Of a stretch of 32,000 nt of DNA, positions 2,047-31,811 are shown piece by piece (the stretch's first letter is position 1; each line of letters starts with the position of its first letter). The DNA comes from Candidatus Electrothrix yaqonensis. GTDB lineage: Bacteria > Desulfobacterota > Desulfobulbia > Desulfobulbales > Desulfobulbaceae. The notes beneath the pieces are model-generated. The model was not told where the DNA came from and ran no database searches. It saw nothing but the letters and a program-made list of their open reading frames with translations. Where the stretch lies: the NCBI GenBank assembly GCA_047651235.1, contig CP178758.1, positions 2,220,001 to 2,252,000 of the forward strand. Direction: 5' to 3'. Position numbers and translations under genes: made by a program.

Positions 2047-2716
2047 ATGTCCTCACTGTCACAGGAAGATAAGGAATTGCTCAATCAATTGAACCGTCAG
2101 CCAAATCTGAAAACGCGTATTCAAGCTATTCTTTCTATAGCCGGTGATGACGGAGACGGGATTGTAAAAGCTGATGAGGCCGAAAGTAGGGTCATTGAGG
2201 AAGTTCGCCGGATGGGTAATGAGGTGCTCAGCGGATGGGCGGAGAGTCGAATTGAAAAATCCGGGGCAGCTCTTCCGACGGACGGTAATTGTACCCGTAG
2301 CGGTAAAAAAAACACATTGGCACACGACGTTCGGGATAATTCACGTAGTTGAGCAGGAGTACAGACAGCCGGGAAAACGGTACCGGCCGTTCAGCCGAAG
2401 TGCCGGAATAACCTGCCGATGCTGCTCGCTGCCTCTGCAGCGTGCCGTAACAGATTTCGGGGCAGACCATTCCTTTGGTCGGGTTCCTGAAAAACTGAAG
2501 GAACATTATGGGATAACATTACCGGTAAGTACTGTCCGAAATATCACGGAGACTCACGCCCGACACATACATGAAAGACGTCGACAGGAGAGAATTGAAG
2601 AATATCCGTCTATAAAGGGACGGGACTTCGTTATTGCCGAGACGGACGGCAGCATGGTTCCGATTGTCCTGACGGATACAAATGCCAAGGACCGGCGCAA
2701 ACTCCACCCCCAGTAA
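2047..2716 (+). mobile_element. ISKra4-like transposase gene fragment (frameshifted and 3'-truncated)
   Basis: Two overlapping ORFs (2047..2352 and 2174..2716) join across an A8 run at 2305-2312: ...SGKK / KTHWHTTFG.... The following segment HSFGRVPEKLKEHYGITLPVSTVRNITE matches my recollection of ISKra4-type transposases. Only the N-terminal ~225 aa are present. Confidence 0.6.
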
Positions 2717-2755
2717 TTCCGCAACCTGTTCGATGGTGACACGTTCTTCCGGCAT
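2706..2755 (-). pseudogene. 5' stub of a small HTH (excisionase/MerR-like) gene cut off by the IS fragment
   Basis: GGGAGG plus ATG at 2755 gives MPEERVTIEQVAELLGV. The sequence then runs into the end of the IS-derived segment and loses sense. Confidence 0.4.
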
Positions 2756-2898
2756 TGCATGTCCTCCCTGTAAGGATTTATAGATATGAGGAATTACGTT
2801 AAAACTTTGGATTTTGGTTGTCAAGGGAAAAGAGGGTGATGAGGTGCTGAAAAGGGCAGGGCGGGGTAAAGTTAGGCGGATTCTGGGTTGGAGGGAGG
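2742..2898. repeat. copy 1 of a ~157-bp duplicated promoter/leader cassette
   Basis: Aligns with 3168..3324 at a constant 426-bp offset and roughly 80% identity. On the minus strand it contains TTGACA (2819-2824), a 17-bp spacer and TAACGT (2796-2801), then an SD and ATG. Confidence 0.8.
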
Positions 2899-2944
2899 AA
2901 ATGCTGTATTTGCGAACGGCAATGCAGAGATCAACAGAGCCGCG

Positions 2945-3106
2945 TTATTTTTTTTTCTGCGATTGTGACTTTTTTTGGCGTTTCTGCATGGCATCTGTTC
3001 GATGCCGCCAGAATTCCAGCTGTTCCTGCACTGACTTGCCCTCAATTAACTGCCTGATATGTTCAGCACCGCGCCGCTTTAAAAGGACACATTCAGGCTC
3101 ACGCAT
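2945..3106 (-). CDS. 53-aa small basic protein (antitoxin-like, hypothetical)
   Basis: Below the ORF-track cutoff. Sequence MREPECVLLKRRGAEHIRQLIEGKSVQEQLEFWRHRTDAMQKRQKKSQSQKKK. Its ATG overlaps the TGA of the 24-codon ORF upstream (ATGCGTGA). Confidence 0.4.
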   Translation of the reverse strand: MREPECVLLKRRGAEHIRQLIEGKSVQEQLEFWRHRTDAMQKRQKKSQSQKKK

Positions 3107-3173
3107 TCTTGCTCTGTTTCCAAGAGTTATCCTTCATTGCCTGATAGCCGGGCTGGGCCTTGTCGTTGGGCAT
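3099..3173 (-). CDS. 24-codon leader-like ORF driven by cassette copy 2
   Basis: Sequence MPNDKAQPGYQAMKDNSWKQSKNA*. The start codon sits at the position equivalent to the ATG of the copy-1 stub. It could instead be the frameshifted 5' part of the 53-aa ORF. Confidence 0.25.
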   Translation of the reverse strand: MPNDKAQPGYQAMKDNSWKQSKNA

Positions 3174-3324
3174 TGCACGTCCCTCATGTGAGAATTTTAT
3201 AGACAAGAGGAATTACGTTAAAACGTTGGTTCTTGCTTGTCAAGGGAAAAAACGGGTGGTGAGGTGCTGAAAAAGGAAGGGTTGGCCTGGGTAAAGCTGG
3301 GCGGCGTCTGGGTTGGAGGGAGAG
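3168..3324. repeat. copy 2 of the ~157-bp duplicated promoter/leader cassette
   Basis: See copy 1. TTGACA (3238-3243) and TAACGT (3215-3220) are conserved on the minus strand. Confidence 0.8.
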
Positions 3325-3378: not shown

Positions 3379-5349
3379 TTATGAGTCAGGTTTTTGCTGA
3401 ACAGAGTGGGTTCGGGCCAAGTATTCCAGGAGTTGTTTATGGATGAAGTGGTAGCTCCCGCCGACCCGTTGCAGGATTTTGCGGTGATGGAGGAATTCTA
3501 GCCAGTTGATGAGGCGGAGAGGGAGTTGGTCCTCTTGCCAGAGGAATAATCTTACTAAATAATGTCTAATAATGGTAATACTTCCGTAAGAGACGATGCT
3601 AACAAAAAGCATAAGGAAAAATACCGCATAAACAGATGGTTCCTGCATGTTGTTCACTATTTGACATCCAGTGTATTTAGCAGATTCTATAGCTTTAAAA
3701 TAAACAAATGCTGCGGTTAAGCTAGTAAGTGGAACAAGAAAACAACCATTAAGGCCAGCATAAAAAAGCGTTTGATAAGGGCTTACTGTTTCTGGAATGG
3801 AAACGTTAAGGTTTCTGCTGGCACGGATTAATGCGAAAATTACTACGCAAGACAACCCGTAGGCTAATGAACCAAAGGCTATAAGTCCAACCAGTCCGCC
3901 AATAATCAAACCAAAAATTATTCCCTCCAATAGTCCCGATAAAACTTTTTTCCAATCATAGAGAGTAGAAGGATAGCCTAATCGTATTATTTCATCCTGC
4001 TTTACAACTTGCTCATCTCTTAGGAGGACATATGCCATCCAGAGTGGTATAATCCTTAAACCAAATGCTGAGTTTAAAAACGACATAATAATCAAGCCGA
4101 GTGGAATCCCGCTTAATAAGCCGTAACTTACCTTGAATTTCCAAATATGATATAGACAGTCTGGATGTAATTCATCAAGACGAAATTCTACTTTTCCCTC
4201 CGTCTTTATCCTGTTTGCTAAACAATACAGCCAACGAATTGAATGGTCTTTGCTATACTGTTTCCAGTATTTCTCCGATCCATTCTTCTTAGATGGTGTT
4301 TTTTTCTTCAGACAATAATCAAGATAAAGCTCCCATAACCGATTTTCCGCCTGTTTTCCCCTTCGCAACCCTTCATCTTGGCTCAGACTTCTTTCGTTTT
4401 CCAGCGTCAGCATAATATTGAGAAAAAGAGGCCGCCGAGCAAGCTCAAACAGACTGCTTTTCTTTCCCTGCTTTTGCGACTGCTGCAAAAAAATCCATAA
4501 GCCGTAAAGCTGCAACCGCTTGAGATAACCCTCTAGCTTCTTTTCCGAGATATCCTGCAAAATGACCGCATGATTCAAGTCTACTTTTTTCTGCAAGCGC
4601 CGATACTCCTCAAGCCGGCAGCAGACCACCAAGGAACGACCCGTCTGAAACTTATTAAAGGCTTGGACAAATTTATCCTGCCTACTTTGTAGTAATTCAT
4701 CTAAGCCGTCAAAAAGCGGAAAGATGACCTCGTCCCGCACAAGTTCTTTAGCCAGCTCTTCTTGCAAGCCTCGGTAGTTTTTACTGAGTTGACGGCCCAT
4801 CCAATCAACCAAGTCCTTATCGTCCCACTCTGAACACTCAAAAATCACCGGCAAGGATTCTTGTTCTTCTTCCTCGGCCCGCTTTAGCAAATGGTCATGT
4901 AGCTGTAAAAGAGAGATAGTCTTACCGCTTCCCGGTTTTCCCAGGATAGCCAAACGCTCGCCGCTTTCTTTGTCTTGGAAAATGTCGATAATACTAAGGT
5001 CGGTGACTTGGGGAGCACGGCCTTCCTGCTCATAAAGAATATCCCGCAGGGAATGGGGCCGATCAACTTCATGGGGAGAGAGTTTCTTTTCTAAATCTAA
5101 TGGGGTACGTTCATCCAGGAGGGAGGACAGGCGAAGGTCTAGGTCATTACGGAAACGTTTGAGGAGCTGCTGACGAAGCCTTGGCGGGCAAACAGAGAGA
5201 TCATTATCGGTTTCTTTTTGGGAGGAGGTAGTGTTTTTTCGGGAACGGAAAAGAAGCCAGCCCAGTATAGGAAGCCCGACACCGCTAAGAATCCACTCCC
5301 ACGGTTTAGCTTCCACAAACGATTGCCAAAATTGTCCAAGCAGCTCCAT
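3379..5349 (-). CDS. NACHT-domain STAND NTPase with 1 N-terminal and ~6 C-terminal transmembrane helices
   Basis: Walker A is LAILGKPGSGKTISLL and Walker B is VIFPLFDGLDEL. The tail GGSYHFIHKQLLEYLA resembles a NACHT winged-helix ending. Hydrophobic stretches include WILSGVGLPILGWLLF and GIIFGLIIGGLVGLIAFGSLAYGL. The gene is visibly more AT-rich than its neighbours. Confidence 0.85.
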   Translation of the reverse strand: MELLGQFWQSFVEAKPWEWILSGVGLPILGWLLFRSRKNTTSSQKETDNDLSVCPPRLRQQLLKRFRNDLDLRLSSLLDERTPLDLEKKLSPHEVDRPHSLRDILYEQEGRAPQVTDLSIIDIFQDKESGERLAILGKPGSGKTISLLQLHDHLLKRAEEEEQESLPVIFECSEWDDKDLVDWMGRQLSKNYRGLQEELAKELVRDEVIFPLFDGLDELLQSRQDKFVQAFNKFQTGRSLVVCCRLEEYRRLQKKVDLNHAVILQDISEKKLEGYLKRLQLYGLWIFLQQSQKQGKKSSLFELARRPLFLNIMLTLENERSLSQDEGLRRGKQAENRLWELYLDYCLKKKTPSKKNGSEKYWKQYSKDHSIRWLYCLANRIKTEGKVEFRLDELHPDCLYHIWKFKVSYGLLSGIPLGLIIMSFLNSAFGLRIIPLWMAYVLLRDEQVVKQDEIIRLGYPSTLYDWKKVLSGLLEGIIFGLIIGGLVGLIAFGSLAYGLSCVVIFALIRASRNLNVSIPETVSPYQTLFYAGLNGCFLVPLTSLTAAFVYFKAIESAKYTGCQIVNNMQEPSVYAVFFLMLFVSIVSYGSITIIRHYLVRLFLWQEDQLPLRLINWLEFLHHRKILQRVGGSYHFIHKQLLEYLARTHSVQQKPDS

Positions 5350-5457
5350 AAACTCCTCTCTGTTTTACGATGCCAACTTAAAAAACATACCTTTTATCCA
5401 AGCCAGCTCCAGATCAACCAACAGAAAACCCAGCTCTTTGCTTTTCCGCACCTTTCA

Positions 5458-5486
5458 TTGACAGCAACCTGAACCCACTGTACAAT
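5458..5486 (+). promoter_or_regulatory. sigma70-type promoter for the higA-like gene
   Basis: TTGACA (5458-5463), an exact 17-bp spacer, then TACAAT (5481-5486), 28 nt before the ATG at 5514. Confidence 0.5.
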
Positions 5487-5513
5487 GAGAACGCAATTAC
5501 AGTCAGGAGAAAT

Positions 5514-5804
5514 ATGCGACCAATCCACCCCGGAGAAATCATTAAAGAAGAGTACCTTGAACCTTTAGGCATGAGTGTTAATGCTCTGGCTGTTGCCCTG
5601 CGCGTTCCAGCTCCCAGAATCAATGATGTGGTACGGCAAAAGCGTGGTATCAGCATTGATACTGCTCTCAGGTTAGCCAGGTATTTCAATACAACCGCAC
5701 AATTTTGGATGAATCTGCAAGTCAGTTATGACCTTAAAATCGCCAAACAACATATAGAAAAAATTAAGAATGAGGTTATACCGTTGCAAACCACAGCCGC
5801 CTGA
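5514..5804 (+). CDS. higA: HigA-family (XRE HTH) antitoxin-like regulator, no adjacent higB
   Basis: MRPIHPGEIIKEEYLEPLGMSVNALAVALRVPAPRINDVVRQKRGISIDTALRLARYF is the canonical HigA/VapI N-terminus. The 164 nt upstream contain no HigB-like frame. Confidence 0.8.
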   Translation: MRPIHPGEIIKEEYLEPLGMSVNALAVALRVPAPRINDVVRQKRGISIDTALRLARYFNTTAQFWMNLQVSYDLKIAKQHIEKIKNEVIPLQTTAA

Positions 5805-5860
5805 TAGAGTGGATGGATAACGGACAATTATAACATGGAACAATTGATGGCTATTGCACT

Positions 5861-7840
5861 TTACTTCTCCGACTCAATCTCCTCAATCCGCCCCTGCGCT
5901 TCCTCCCAAACCGCAAACTGACGCTTCAGCGTTTGCTCTACCTCATTATACTCCTTGCTGACTTTCAGCCAGCGGGGTTGGTTCGCATACAGATCAGGAT
6001 CAGCCATTAAGGTCTCCAGCTCCCCTTTACGCTCCTCCAGGACATCAATTTGTTTCTCTGCGGTAGCTGATTTTTTCTTCCAGGGTTTCAGTTGACCACT
6101 GAGTTGCTGCCGTTGTTGGGCCCGTTTCCTCCGTTCTTCCTTGCGATCACCCGAACCAGCAGCATCCTGTTCCGTTTTCGCAGGAGCGCTCTTTTGCTGC
6201 TTCTCCTGTTTTTTTACCGCAAGCTGCTCTTCGTCCAGTTGCTGGCGGGCCGCAAGATAATCATCAATATTGCCTTCATGGAGAATCGCCCGACCATCCC
6301 GGATTTCCAGTACCTTATTGACAAAAGAATTGACAAAGGTCCGGTTATGAGAAACCACGATGATGCTGCCCTCGTACTGGGCCATTGCCTCCTGAAGCAC
6401 CTCCTGGGAGGTAATGTCCAGATGGTTGGTGGGCTCGTCCAACAGCATGAGATTGGCAGGCTTGACCAGCATTTTTGCCAGGGCCACCCGGCTCTTTTCC
6501 CCACCGGACAGCACCTGCACATGCTTGTCCACCTCGTCGCCAGTAAAGAGAAAGGCCCCGAGCAGCGAGCGCACCTTGGTCACGGTCATGTCCTGGGCTG
6601 CGTGGTACACTGTGTCCAAAATGCTGGACTCGCCATAGAGTTCCTGGGCCTGATGCTGGCCAAAATAGGTCAGGATGACGTTATGCCCCAGACTGATCTC
6701 GCCTTCAGCGGGTTCCAGACTCGCCATAATCTTCATCAGAGTGGTTTTACCAGCCCCGTTGACTCCGACCACAGCCAGTTTATCCCCTCGTTGCAGGTTC
6801 AGATGGACATCTTTAAAGATTTGCTTGCCATCAAAGGATTTATTGACCTTATCCAGCTGCAAGATGTCCCGTCCTGAGGGCATGGCTGGCGGGAAAGAAA
6901 AGTGGATGGTGCGCTCGGTCTCAGAGAGCTCCAGGCGCTCCAGCTTTTCCAGCTGCTTGACTCGGCTCTGGACCTGCTTGGCCTTGGTGGACTTGGCCCG
7001 AAAACGGGTAATGAACTGCTCTGCCTGCTTGATCATGGCCTGCTGATTCTCATAGGCAGCCCGCTCCAGCTCCATGCGCTGTTCCTTATCCACCAGATAC
7101 TTGGAGTAATTGCCCTTATAAACGGTTAAGCGGCCAAGACTGAGTTCCCAGGTTTTAGTGGTGACCCGATCAAGAAAAGAGCGGTCATGGGAGATAATCA
7201 TCATGGCGCCCTGGTATTGTTGCAGGAAGTCTTCCAGCCAGGTCAGGGAATCCAGATCAAGATGGTTGGTCGGCTCATCCAGCAGAAGCAGGGCAGGCTT
7301 GCGCAGGAGCAGCTTTGCCAGGAGCAGACGCATGATCCATCCGCCGGAGAACTCGGCTACGGGCCGGTCCAGGTCTTCTTTGGAAAACCCTAGACCAAAG
7401 AGGATGCGCTCAATCTGGGGACGGATACGAAAGATATCATGGCCCTCCAGCAGGTGCTGGAGCTCGCCCTGCCGTTCCAGCAGGGACTCCAGCTCCGGGC
7501 TGTCCTGGTCCAGTCCGGCCATGCGCTGGTTGATCTCGTCAAACTCCTGCTGCTGCTGCAAGGCCTCATCAAAGGCATGTTCGGCCTCTTCAAAGAGCGA
7601 GCGCTGGCCCAGTTCAATGGAGATCTCCTGGGGAAGATAGGCCACGGTGAACCATGAGGCCCTGCTGATGACGCCGGGATCAGTCTCCAGGGACCCGCTG
7701 ATAATCTTCATCAGGGTGGATTTTCCTGTGCCGTTGACACCTGCCAGCCCGATGCGGTCATCTGCATGGATCTGGGAGGTGACTTCACGAAAGAGGTGCT
7801 TAGAGCCGTATTGCAGGCTGAGGTTATTTATGGTGAGCAT
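5861..7840 (-). CDS. ABC-F family ATPase (two ABC domains plus a charged coiled-coil tail)
   Basis: Two Walker A motifs (GVNGTGKST and GVNGAGKTT) and two LSGG signatures. No TM domain. Lys/Glu/Gln-rich C-terminus as in Uup/YheS-type proteins. Confidence 0.9.
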   Translation of the reverse strand: MLTINNLSLQYGSKHLFREVTSQIHADDRIGLAGVNGTGKSTLMKIISGSLETDPGVISRASWFTVAYLPQEISIELGQRSLFEEAEHAFDEALQQQQEFDEINQRMAGLDQDSPELESLLERQGELQHLLEGHDIFRIRPQIERILFGLGFSKEDLDRPVAEFSGGWIMRLLLAKLLLRKPALLLLDEPTNHLDLDSLTWLEDFLQQYQGAMMIISHDRSFLDRVTTKTWELSLGRLTVYKGNYSKYLVDKEQRMELERAAYENQQAMIKQAEQFITRFRAKSTKAKQVQSRVKQLEKLERLELSETERTIHFSFPPAMPSGRDILQLDKVNKSFDGKQIFKDVHLNLQRGDKLAVVGVNGAGKTTLMKIMASLEPAEGEISLGHNVILTYFGQHQAQELYGESSILDTVYHAAQDMTVTKVRSLLGAFLFTGDEVDKHVQVLSGGEKSRVALAKMLVKPANLMLLDEPTNHLDITSQEVLQEAMAQYEGSIIVVSHNRTFVNSFVNKVLEIRDGRAILHEGNIDDYLAARQQLDEEQLAVKKQEKQQKSAPAKTEQDAAGSGDRKEERRKRAQQRQQLSGQLKPWKKKSATAEKQIDVLEERKGELETLMADPDLYANQPRWLKVSKEYNEVEQTLKRQFAVWEEAQGRIEEIESEK

Positions 7841-25138: not shown

Positions 25139-25184
25139 ATTCTATCATAGAACAGCATCTGCTGTCTGCTTTGGATAGGTGGAT

Positions 25185-25925
25185 TCAGATTTCAGGGCAG
25201 AGCCTGTGGTCATGGGGGTGCTCACCGCAGGTATGGGCATGCCGGTGGAGATGGAGACGTTCCGTGCCGCTGTGGACGACCCGGCCCTGATTCAGCGTGT
25301 ACAGGTCAGTGCAGGTGGCGCTGAGAAAATCCCAGTCATGGGAGATAATCAGATAACTGATATCGAGTTTGTTGAGCAGGGCAATCAGGCGTTCCCGGAT
25401 TGCCGGATCCAGATTATTGGTCGGCTCGTCCAGCAGAATGGCTTCCGGCTGCATGGACAGGACCGTAGCAATAGAAACCAGTTTTTTCTCGCCGCCGGAC
25501 AGTCGGTGGGTGACCTGATCCTTCAAGCCGCCAAGACCCAATTTTTCCAGGGTAGTGACAGAAATCTGTATAGCCTCTTCCGGTGTTTTGCCGAGATTCA
25601 ACGGACCAAAGGCCACATCTTCCAGCACGGTTGCCGAGAAAAGCTGATCGTCGGCATCCTGAAAAACCAGTCCGATATTCCTGCGCAATTGCCTGAACCC
25701 GTCTTTATCCGTGAGCTCGTCGCCTTTGAACAGCAGCTTGCCTTCTGCGGGCCGGTGCAGTCCCATGATGAGATGGAGCAGGGTGGTCTTGCCGCTGCCG
25801 TTGGGGCCGATCAGACCGATTTTCTGCCTGTACCCGATGGACATGTCGATGCGGCCCAGAATCTGACGGCCGTCAGGATAGGAAAAGGAGACCTGCTGCA
25901 GCTGAACGAGGGGAGGGGTGGTCAT
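25185..25925 (-). CDS. ECF/CbiO-type ABC ATPase with a His/Cys-rich tail
   Basis: Walker A GPNGSGKTT, signature LSGGEKKLVSIA, Walker B ILLDEPTNNLD. The tail is HLHRHAHTCGEHPHDHRLCPEI. Confidence 0.9.
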   Translation of the reverse strand: MTTPPLVQLQQVSFSYPDGRQILGRIDMSIGYRQKIGLIGPNGSGKTTLLHLIMGLHRPAEGKLLFKGDELTDKDGFRQLRRNIGLVFQDADDQLFSATVLEDVAFGPLNLGKTPEEAIQISVTTLEKLGLGGLKDQVTHRLSGGEKKLVSIATVLSMQPEAILLDEPTNNLDPAIRERLIALLNKLDISYLIISHDWDFLSATCTDLYTLNQGRVVHSGTERLHLHRHAHTCGEHPHDHRLCPEI

Positions 25926-26079
25926 GGAAATGGAAATTTTCCGGGAGTTCTCCAGCTATTTTGGCGATATATCGAGCGATAAGCGATCCAAACAAGATCG
26001 TCGGGAGAAACAGAAGCTCCTGCAGGAAGGCCAGCGCCGAGAACGTGTCCTCCTGCAGGATTGAAGCGTTTACTTCTGT

Positions 26080-29699: not shown

Positions 29700-29900
29700 T
29701 GTCCTTGGCGGGACGCTTTATTTCGATATTGAGTGAGTGTACCATAAATTACAGATTGACTCTTCTTTATTTCTGCAGAGCATCCATAATATTTTCCCAT
29801 AGTTTCTCCTTCGACTATTTCCTGAAGTCTCCGCAGACTGTATTCCACGGACCGAACTCCTTCGGGAGCATCCTCCACTGACAACCTGTTCTGTATACGC
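29700..29900 (-). pseudogene. IS5-family (DUF4096-type) transposase N-terminal fragment, multiply frameshifted
   Basis: [25 protein letters not shown] in one frame is followed by LWENIMDALQK in another. Together these match the conserved N-terminal motif of IS5-group transposases. Confidence 0.55.
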
Positions 29901-30165
29901 GGCAGTGACCCGGACGGGGCCTGTTACTGGCTGAGCCGGATGCTCGCTGGCGGGGAAGATCCGCACATTGCCCGGCGCCTGATCCGTTTTGCCAGTGAGG
30001 GGGTTGGAAGTGGCGATCAGCTGTCGACATGCCTATACGATGCTCGGTTCCCCGGAGGGAGAACTGGCCCTGTATCAGGCAATCGTGTATCTTGCCACGG
30101 CACCGAGAAGCAATACCTTGCATAATGCCTTGTATGTAACGAAAAAAAAGGTTAAGAAAGAGGTA
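29897..30165 (+). pseudogene. rarA: internal remnant of rarA/mgsA (recombination-associated AAA+ ATPase)
   Basis: [38 protein letters not shown] is followed after a frameshift by [24 protein letters not shown]. These are conserved MgsA C-terminal blocks. The AAA+ domain and the C-terminus are absent. Confidence 0.65.
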
Positions 30166-30230
30166 CGGTGCTCACACATCGATACAACTGACCAATAACA
30201 GAATCAACAGAAAATACCGGTGAGAATACA

Positions 30231-31811
30231 ATGAAAATATACCGCACAAAAAAGATGTTGCTTCCCCTGCTCCTGCTGCTGACTGTGGTACCGTCATTGC
30301 AAGCAAAGGAGTTCCTCCTGTTTTACGCCAATGATCAGCGTGGAGAGGTCGCCCCCTGCGGTTGAAAGCGTCGTCAGCTGGGCGGGCTGTCCAGAAAAGC
30401 ATTACAGATAACACGACTTGCTGAACAGGAAAAACTGCCGTCACTGTTTCTTGACAGCGGCGCACTACTCTTTCCCGGAAAAAATTTGCAGGACAGAAAA
30501 AAAGCAGCAGCAACGGTCAATGCCGAAGGTATTGTCACGGCTATGCAGGCCATGAACTGCCAGGCTGCGGGGATCTCCTCCTATGATCTGGCCGGAGGGA
30601 TCGGTCTGCTTGAGGAACTGCAGGAGCAGGGTCGGGTGACCTGGTTATCCGGAAACCTAGTTGACAGCAAGAAAAAAGAACCTGTCTTTACACCGTCTCT
30701 TTTCACGGAAGTCAACGGAATCAAAATCGCCATCCTGGGGATTACGGGCGAACAGGCAGGAGAGGCGACAGGAATCAAGGAAGCCGGATACACTATTCTG
30801 CCCTGGCAGGAAACCCTGCCGAAAATGGCGGCAGCAGCAGGAAAAAAAGCCGATATGACGATTCTGCTGTCCAGTTATCCTTACCTGGTCAATAAAGAAA
30901 TCGCCGAGTCTGTTGCCGGGGTTCACCTGATTCTTGCCTCCGGCCATGCCGTTTCTTCTTCCCATCCGTATCAAGCTGAAAATACGGTCATCGCGCAGAC
31001 CGGGGCACGCGGGAAATATCTCGGCATGATGCGAATCAACTGGACAGAAACGCAACAGTGGAGCGAAAATTTCTCCAGCCAGATCCAACAGGCCCGGAAG
31101 CAGCTGAAACAGGTTAACAGTCAGCTCGCGCGGCTGGAAAAACAAGGGGACAAGGATAAGCTGAAGAAAAATAAGCGCTATCAGAATATGCTGGCAAAAA
31201 AGAAGCAGATCAGCAAACAGATCAAAAAATTACAGGAGGACAAAGCTGCTGCGCCGGAATCGGAAACGCTCTGCAGCTTCAGCAACAAGTTTATCCCGCT
31301 GGAGACCTCGTTGCCGGAAGACCCGCAGGTGAAGAAAATAATTGATCAGACCATTCAGCAGGTGAATATGGTTAATCAGAAACATGCTCCGGTGGCTACG
31401 AAGCAGCCGACAGCCACCCTGCAGGATTTGGCTGGCTGGCAGGCCTGTCAGAAATGTCACCAGAAACAGGTGGAGTTCTGGCAGGGAACCAAACATGCAG
31501 CGGCGTGGTCCACCCTGGAGAAAAAGAACCAGCAGTTTAACGAAGAGTGTCTGATCTGTCACGTCACGCTGCCCTACTATGATGATGCACGGGTGAAAAG
31601 TGAAAACCTGCTCCTGATGTTGCCCGGCACCTTGAAAAATGTCGGCTGCGAAACCTGCCACGGCCCGGCAGCAGACCACAGCACCAAGCAGATGCCCATT
31701 CCTGTCCCTCATCCGGATGAGAAAGTATGCGCAGGATGCCATACGACAGAGCATGATGATAATTTTGTCTTTGCCGACAAGATGAAAAAAATACGCTGCC
31801 CGGAGAAATAA
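30231..31811 (+). CDS. exported tetrahaem c-type cytochrome with a 5'-nucleotidase-like N-terminal region and an in-frame TGA at codon 45
   Basis: The signal peptide MKIYRTKKMLLPLLLLLTVVPSLQA is in the same frame as ORF 30486..31811. The single stop is TGA at 30363-30365 (...EVAPCG*KRRQLGGLSRKA). Four CxxCH motifs are present: CQKCH, CLICH, CETCH, CAGCH. Confidence 0.7.
30378..30394 (+). other. hairpin 13 nt after the in-frame TGA (candidate bacterial SECIS)
   Basis: CUGGGC-GGGCU-GUCCAG forms a 6-bp stem including one G-U pair. The 5-nt loop contains G and U and starts 18 nt after the UGA. Confidence 0.3.

Follow-up and report, generated by a model that had tools for sequence, protein, structure and literature searches.

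The question addressed here is whether an in-frame TGA codon in a gene for an exported, UshA-like tetrahaem cytochrome of Candidatus Electrothrix yaqonensis is read as selenocysteine (Sec) or marks a gene that was recently broken by a nonsense mutation. The gene is located at the right end of a 32,000-nucleotide stretch of contig CP178758.1 (positions 2,220,001 to 2,252,000), which is referred to as the window and to which all coordinates below apply. Based on the family assignment of the encoded protein, the codon found at the same position in homologous loci and a stem-loop conserved directly downstream, the TGA is very probably a functional selenocysteine codon. The gene is a member of an already catalogued selenoprotein family that has been known since 2008 and is annotated in the closest named relative.

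The reading frame between 30231 and 31811 is broken solely by the TGA at 30363-65, in the context EVAPCG-TGA-KRRQLGGL, and 481 further open codons follow up to the TAA at 31809-11. What the mechanical list of open reading frames (ORFs) gives as a 441-residue ORF with a TTG start (30486-31811) is the final part of the same open frame. An earlier note on this DNA had placed a signal peptide and this 441-codon haem-binding ORF in one frame, split by the TGA alone, and its coordinates were confirmed. The leader (MKIYRTKKMLLPLLLLLTVVPSLQA) has a positively charged N region, a hydrophobic core and an LQA cleavage-type end, and was called a signal peptide by eye. The 526 codons contain this single TGA, no frameshift and no second stop. 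TGA also terminates three of the 14 confidently predicted genes of the window and does not occur internally in the others; its use as an ordinary stop codon in other window genes indicates the standard genetic code without reassignment.

For the family assignment the read-through protein was searched with Cys placed at residue 45. It matched the NCBIfam model NF041198 (UshA_like_PCGU, UshA-like (seleno)protein, equivalog) with an E-value of 3.7e-178 and 593.3 bits (cutoff: 275), with a single alignment running across the TGA from residue 13 to 514 (profile positions 9-518 of 519). Membership is further indicated by the A-P-C-G-TGA motif (30351-65) and by the combination of a 5'-nucleotidase-like with a multihaem domain, the Pfam search having recovered only the C-terminal Cytochrome_C554 domain (E = 4e-13). 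The family appeared as "COG0737, UshA-like" with the motif CxU in the selenoproteome of the Global Ocean Sampling in 2008 (PMC2398784), and the UshA-like CxU selenoprotein family is also included in a review of 2022 (PMC9312934) and in one of 2026 that cites NF041198 explicitly (PMC13188914). A search of the literature on cable bacteria, Electrothrix or Desulfobulbaceae in connection with selenocysteine or selenoproteins returned nothing relevant.

The window protein shares with the NF041198 family the PCGU motif with UGA at the family Sec position, the signal peptide, the 5'-nucleotidase-like domain, the helical linker and the C-terminal four-haem c554-like domain. The family occurs in the clade of the window gene itself (Desulfobulbia, relatives of cable bacteria) and is annotated there by NCBI, the orthologue of Candidatus Electrothrix aestuarii being named "UshA-like (seleno)protein". 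The window protein differs in that its identity to the nearest members in the databases only reaches 59-64% and in that it lacks the low-complexity C-terminal tail of the Electrothrix proteins; no functional difference from the family is in evidence. Membership in the distantly related family 2 of UshA-like selenoproteins (NF049981), which has the motif CxxU in place of the CxU of the window protein, was rejected (35.7 bits, cutoff: 140).

The protein search yielded 214 homologues, and the DNA was examined for 80 genome loci (among the matches listed), for six more that were retrieved by their exact proteins and for 17 from metagenomes. The genome scan, run with the full alignment, gave distant relatives and not the source genome. 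The metagenome loci were obtained with a second metagenome scan, in which the alignment downstream of the Sec codon was used as query to avoid a bias towards TGY codons; a scan with the single window protein had given no matches. Full-length homologues, including those of Candidatus Electronema sp. JM and Candidatus Electronema halotolerans, read ETEPCGC[KRS]..Q[LR]GG[LM] with the Cys aligned to the window TGA, and the PCGC...QLGGL sequence given in the earlier note was therefore correct. The aligned codon was TGC or TGT in all 37 Cys-form loci, which belong mostly to Myxococcota, Planctomycetota and Verrucomicrobiota, plus the Electronema type. The Sec/Cys pairing proposed in the note was borne out by this alignment, and its proviso that homologues might fail to conserve a Cys here was examined and found not to apply, as the Cys is conserved in all Cys forms.

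Many other homologues, including the Candidatus Electrothrix aestuarii protein, are N-terminally truncated and start with MGGLSR... exactly after the TGA position. These starts lie inside the NF041198 profile and have the pattern of a gene caller stopped by TGA, which marks them as annotation artefacts. TGA-containing orthologues were also sought at the DNA level, and TGA was found at the aligned codon in 22 loci besides the window, a count that includes another contig with the window's own gene (L081, a 7.5-kb Logan contig of run SRR31704081, where the gene calls are 44 and 441 amino acids long). The TGA loci comprise five of five Desulfobulbia genomes (L001-L005), the complete genome of Candidatus Electrothrix aestuarii (L082) and ten metagenome contigs (L087-L096), and further metagenome-assembled genomes (MAGs) assigned to Cognaticolwellia, Enterobacterales, Myxococcota, Oligoflexia and, more distantly, Eisenbacteria (L057). 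Every close relative recovered carries TGA at this codon.

A neighbour-joining tree was built from the 230 residues after the TGA codon. In it the window gene falls together with L082 and L087-L089, all of them TGA loci (59-62% identity). The sister of this group, the Cys clade of Candidatus Electronema (L083-L085, 47-55% identity), is derived, and all other members of the Desulfobulbia part carry TGA. The window is nested in the TGA clade, and its TGA is thus inherited and not recent; most simply, the Sec codon would be ancestral and would have been converted to Cys once, on the Electronema branch. Among the relatives of cable bacteria the form of the protein appears to follow the genus. Electrothrix-type sequences (L082, L087-L089; P0008, P0013, P0014, P0044) have Sec or truncated gene calls consistent with Sec, and Candidatus Electronema sequences (L083-L085; P0017, P0048) have Cys together with a hairpin that is weakened or lost, a distribution that again suggests a single conversion in the Electronema lineage. 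Behind the split between Sec in Electrothrix-like organisms, this one included, and Cys in Electronema-type organisms there could be the supply of selenium, or else the two may differ in the sulfur or electron-transfer chemistry of the periplasm.

The sequence is conserved on both sides of the TGA. No stop interrupts the 230 codons downstream in any of the 19 TGA loci examined, the window being one of them, and for the 44 codons upstream an alignment of the window with six other TGA loci shows conservation at the protein level, with a hydrophobic leader followed by [EK]FLLFY.ND.RGE..PCG as in the Cys forms. This upstream and downstream conservation indicates that both sides of the UGA have been under selection as one reading frame. 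The window protein keeps all columns that are invariant across 69 homologues as well as the four CXXCH motifs. Classification of the UshA-like gene as a pseudogene was considered and rejected, as extra stops, frameshifts, truncation or lost invariant residues were not found.

The stem-loop lies over the codons for LGGLSR, where the earlier note had described a 6-bp hairpin with a GGGCU loop (30378-30394). The hairpin was confirmed, with the arms CUGGGC (30378-83) and GUCCAG (30389-94) flanking the loop (30384-88) and forming six pairs that include one G-U; relative to the UGA, the stem begins 12 nt after the A and the loop begins 21 nt after the U. It is specific to the TGA form among the relatives: six of six pairs are formed in 20 of the 22 other TGA loci and five pairs in one more, as against a mean of about 2.7 of six pairs in the Cys loci (n = 37), with the complete stem in a single high-GC locus (L053). 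Three Cys loci (L017, L040, L084) encode the same LGGL[SD] peptide and yet have no hairpin, and the closest Cys forms have only a weakened one (L083, five of six pairs). The note had also raised the possibility that close relatives might carry TGC or TGT with the same downstream sequence and without a conserved hairpin; the closest relatives were found to carry TGA with the hairpin.

Raw conservation of the hairpin may be driven by the protein, since the stem-loop overlaps the LGGLSR codons, and the specificity for TGA, the covariation and the codon choice are what separate a constraint on the RNA. In an alignment of 19 TGA sequences 99.1% of the cells were paired, compared to 24-56% in controls with the 3' arm slid along the sequence. 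Double changes occur at two pairs, C-G to U-A (three sequences) and U-A to G-C (one sequence), and in the second of these a Leu encoded by the 5' arm has become Arg while the 3' arm has the matching synonymous change from AGA to CGA. When LGGLSR was recoded with the codon usage of the window, all six pairs were formed in 2.7% of the synonymous versions; the stem requires AGA, a codon rarely used for Arg in the window (about 9%). All TGA loci that form the hairpin have GGNCU as their loop (21 of 22, the distant L057 differing), the variable base being a Gly wobble position.

The selenocysteine insertion sequence (SECIS) of Escherichia coli fdhF has an 11-nt spacer after the UGA, a minimal upper stem-loop of 17 nt and a G at the start of the loop. 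Similar to this SelB-recognised element, the window hairpin lies within the coding region directly 3' of the UGA and is a short stem-loop of 17 nt, with a spacer of 12 nt in place of 11, and its apical loop begins with G residues (GGNCU) as in the bacterial SECIS consensus. The two differ in sequence, no bulged U is evident in the window hairpin and it has no match in Rfam. Two of the homologous loci depart from the general pattern. A Candidatus Eisenbacteria MAG (L057, position 2176) has TGA at the PCG_ position with three of six pairs, so that the standard hairpin is not formed, and a different G+C-rich structure may act as its SECIS. A Planctomycetia MAG (L053, position 2134) has TGC together with a complete hairpin (CGCGGC-GGGCU-GCCGCG) at the equivalent position, which is likely due to chance in a high-GC genome or to a recent Sec-to-Cys conversion.

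The locus has the features by which a selenoprotein gene is recognised, namely a UGA aligned with Cys, a frame open on both sides and a stem-loop at SECIS distance that is kept in the Sec forms. Several observations nevertheless weigh against decoding as Sec. None of selA, selB, selC and selD is present in the window, in which the tRNA scan found no tRNA genes, and a tblastn search for SelD with an approximate E. coli query against the window and the 103 loci (624 kb) gave no match, a result that is uninformative on the source genome. A search of 30200-30600 against Rfam at a permissive E-value gave two chance matches and no SECIS family; Rfam is not known to include a general model for bacterial SECIS elements, in which case the negative would count for less. 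On folding, which the earlier note had proposed, the hairpin forms, though the 68-nt stretch (30363-30430) folded alone is unremarkable and no better in energy than shuffled sequences (z = +0.55). The hairpin also overlaps a conserved peptide, and part of its conservation is protein-driven. Finally, a real rarA pseudogene lies immediately upstream, so that gene decay does occur at this locus; the note's description of the window as full of pseudogenes was confirmed for this one case only. We regard the comparative data as decisive for the hairpin, the fold of the single sequence being uninformative on its own.

A recent nonsense mutation, by which a TGC or TGT Cys codon would have become TGA in the window lineage and left a young pseudogene similar to its rarA neighbour, was one of the two readings offered in the earlier note. 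It would require a single substitution, and the decayed rarA remnant (29892-30123) adjoins the gene directly. The distribution of TGA among the relatives contradicts it, however, as all closest relatives already have TGA and the window nests inside their clade, and a new mutation would have had to coincide exactly with the Sec position of the family. In addition, the TGA-specific hairpin is intact in the window with six of six pairs, no other stop or frameshift is found in the 526 codons, the match to NF041198 is full-length, and all family-invariant residues and the four CXXCH motifs are kept, which together make this explanation very improbable. Somewhat less improbable, although still unlikely, is that the codon is a relic, with TGA and SECIS inherited from an ancestor by an organism that has since lost the Sec machinery and no longer expresses the full-length protein. 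The adjoining gene decay would fit this, as would the conversion to Cys in the sister lineage Candidatus Electronema, by which the use of Sec is seen to be evolutionarily labile. Against it, neither the frame nor the hairpin nor any conserved residue has been lost, although the protein differs by about 40% from that of the nearest relative; such intactness points to continued purifying selection on read-through, and any loss of the machinery would have to be very recent.

The least credible explanation, to which we give next to no weight, does without Sec and has the locus yield two products, a 44-residue peptide and a re-initiated cytoplasmic protein, or has the UGA suppressed by a near-cognate tRNA. 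Gene callers do split the locus in this manner, with the calls of 44 and 441 amino acids on L081 and the MGGLSR... starts of homologues, but the latter are annotation artefacts. Maturation of c-type cytochromes takes place in the periplasm and the haem c domain requires export, and a re-initiated product would be made without the leader. The argument of the earlier note that an exported haem domain needs the upstream signal peptide was found to be sound, the 44 upstream codons being conserved, in the aligned TGA loci, as the N-terminal strand of the same domain. A two-product locus would also leave the conserved hairpin without explanation.

With the TGA read as a Sec codon, the following sequence of events is proposed. 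The ribosome would start at the ATG at 30231, and the stem-loop at 30378-94, 12 nt past the UGA at 30363-65, would recruit SelB-GTP carrying Sec-tRNA(Sec), SelB-dependent decoding in the source organism being the expected route. Sec would be inserted as residue 45, where the Cys-form homologues have Cys, and translation would proceed to the TAA at 31811. The signal peptide (residues 1-25) would then export the 526-residue precursor, and four haems would be attached in the periplasm to the C-terminal cytochrome c554-like domain. The features of the gene are collected in Table 1.

Table 1. Features of the putative UshA-like selenoprotein gene (positions in the window).
Feature	Position	Strand	Description and basis
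Shine-Dalgarno-like GGTGAG	30219..30224	+	6 nt before ATG 30231; read from sequence
Putative selenoprotein coding sequence, complete	30231..31811	+	526 codons, UGA45 read as Sec, TAA at 31809-11; translation and NF041198 match
Putative signal peptide, codons 1-25, MKIYRTKKMLLPLLLLLTVVPSLQA	30231..30305	+	Sequence inspection; equivalent in-frame hydrophobic leader in relatives
UshA/5'-nucleotidase-like (calcineurin-fold) domain, about residues 26-275	30306..31055	+	PDB profile matches, Foldseek of the model of homologue P0004
Cys43-Gly44-Sec45 (TGC GGT TGA), CxU/PCGU motif that names the NF041198 family	30357..30365	+	
UGA codon, inferred Sec decoding	30363..30365	+	Family model, Cys pairing, TGA in relatives
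SECIS-type stem-loop CUGGGC-GGGCU-GUCCAG, 17 nt	30378..30394	+	Overlaps codons L50-G-G-L-S-R55
Lys/Gln-rich helical linker, probably coiled coil, about residues 276-346	31056..31270	+	Boundaries approximate; helices in P0004 model
Haem-binding motif 1, CQKCH, residues 406-410	31446..31460	+	Translation; columns invariant in 69 homologues
Haem-binding motif 2, CLICH, residues 440-444	31548..31562	+	Translation; invariant in 69 homologues
Haem-binding motif 3, CETCH, residues 473-477	31647..31661	+	Translation; invariant in 69 homologues
Haem-binding motif 4, CAGCH, residues 500-504	31728..31742	+	Translation; invariant in 69 homologues

Beyond these features, the promoter and terminator scan gave nothing convincing for the UshA-like selenoprotein gene. 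The window was also scanned for further pairs of ORFs that an in-frame TGA would link, and judged by segment layout no other candidate stood out.

The architecture of the protein was examined by profile and structure comparison. The N-terminal domain matched 5'-nucleotidase, UshA and SoxB in a profile search against PDB sequences (E = 1e-9 to 1e-14), and the AlphaFold model of homologue P0004 (53% identical to the window protein; predicted local distance difference test score, pLDDT, 85.6; predicted template modelling score 0.81) matched UshA and CD73 in Foldseek (E of about 1e-15). The linker of this model contains two long helices (287-311 and 322-343) and gave weak matches to FapA and SMC-like proteins. 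The loop carrying C-x-C has a pLDDT below 50 and the model is unreliable there, the N-terminus being present in few database sequences. E. coli UshA and 5'-nucleotidase (CD73) and the SoxB thiosulfohydrolase thus share the fold of the N-terminal domain, and the window protein keeps the motif I Asp (D35) and the GG[LV][AS]R element of such enzymes. A C-terminal nucleotide-binding domain is not present, a probable coiled coil and a tetrahaem domain being found in its place. The C-terminal approximately 120 residues with the four CXXCH motifs match cytochrome c554 of Nitrosomonas europaea (PDB 1bvb/1ft5) and a related multihaem domain (PDB 6i5b); unlike in cytochrome c554, the haem domain here forms one polypeptide with an UshA-like domain that contains Sec.

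The metal-ligand motifs were read from single-sequence alignments to PDB 3jyf, 2z1a and 3ivd (E = 4e-4 to 0.02), and the assignments are provisional. The canonical DxH of motif I corresponds to D35-x-R37 in the window protein (Asp kept, His replaced), the GD of motif II to G77-A78, the GNHE of motif III to S-S-Y118-D119 and the His of motif IV to S214/S215; the counterpart of the GH of motif V is ambiguous. Assignment as a canonical 5'-nucleotidase or dimetal phosphoesterase was rejected, motifs I-IV being altered in these provisional alignments. According to the family consensus the substitutions are common to the whole family. The window protein is probably not a phosphoesterase or nucleotidase, and the name "UshA-like" probably reflects the fold and not nucleotidase activity.

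Cys43-x-Sec45 is part of the loop that comes right after motif I, follows the motif I Asp by nine to ten residues and should be placed at the rim of the former metal site; it is probably the active site, with a redox or chalcogen-binding role and a connection to the haems. The exported window protein would be a redox enzyme of the periplasm, with the selenol/thiol pair as its catalytic centre and the haems as electron carriers. For the family as a whole we propose, tentatively and with a little less than even confidence, a periplasmic selenoenzyme that is not a nucleotidase, in which the dimetal site of the calcineurin fold has been replaced by a Cys-x-Sec centre connected by a coiled coil to four haems, and whose form appears to follow the genus, with Sec in Electrothrix-like organisms and Cys plus a decaying SECIS in Electronema. 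The surroundings of the gene vary from one relative to the next and offer no hint of an operon.

Among the neighbouring genes, the rarA/mgsA remnant (29892-30123, +) covers only residues 266-351 of about 452 and is split over two frames. It is 72-81% identical to the intact rarA of Candidatus Electrothrix aestuarii (L082, 1381-2739), which sits directly upstream of the orthologous UshA-like gene, and the remnant is a true pseudogene in conserved synteny. Just past the right end of the window, contig L081 carries genes with nSTAND1 and WD40-propeller domains (3856-6805), preceded by a dehydratase gene of the ilvD/edd family whose start is at 31811. A NACHT-domain protein is encoded within the window at 3379-5349 (-), and the positions of the NACHT and nSTAND1 genes mean that STAND-type NTPases flank the region. 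Two ORFs on opposite strands overlap almost completely (25179-25982, + and 25185-25925, -); family matches, to an ATPase of an energy-coupling factor (ECF)/cobalt-type ABC transporter, were obtained for the minus-strand ORF only, and the plus-strand ORF is presumably a shadow ORF. A LysR-family regulator (574-1659, +) has a YeiE-like protein as best match, and its neighbours, a small secreted protein (6-371, -) and unassigned ORFs at 2047-3191, show no link to selenium. The model for a selenium metabolism-associated LysR regulator (NF040786) scored below its cutoff for this gene (206.7 compared to 250 bits) and was not used as evidence.

For annotation, the results mean that the calls of 44 and 441 amino acids should be merged into one selenoprotein of 526 residues, and that the Sec codon accounts for the truncated form of many database entries with an MGGLSR... 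start. In biological terms the finding is nothing new in kind, being a re-discovery of the UshA-like CxU family, for which a curated NCBI model exists.

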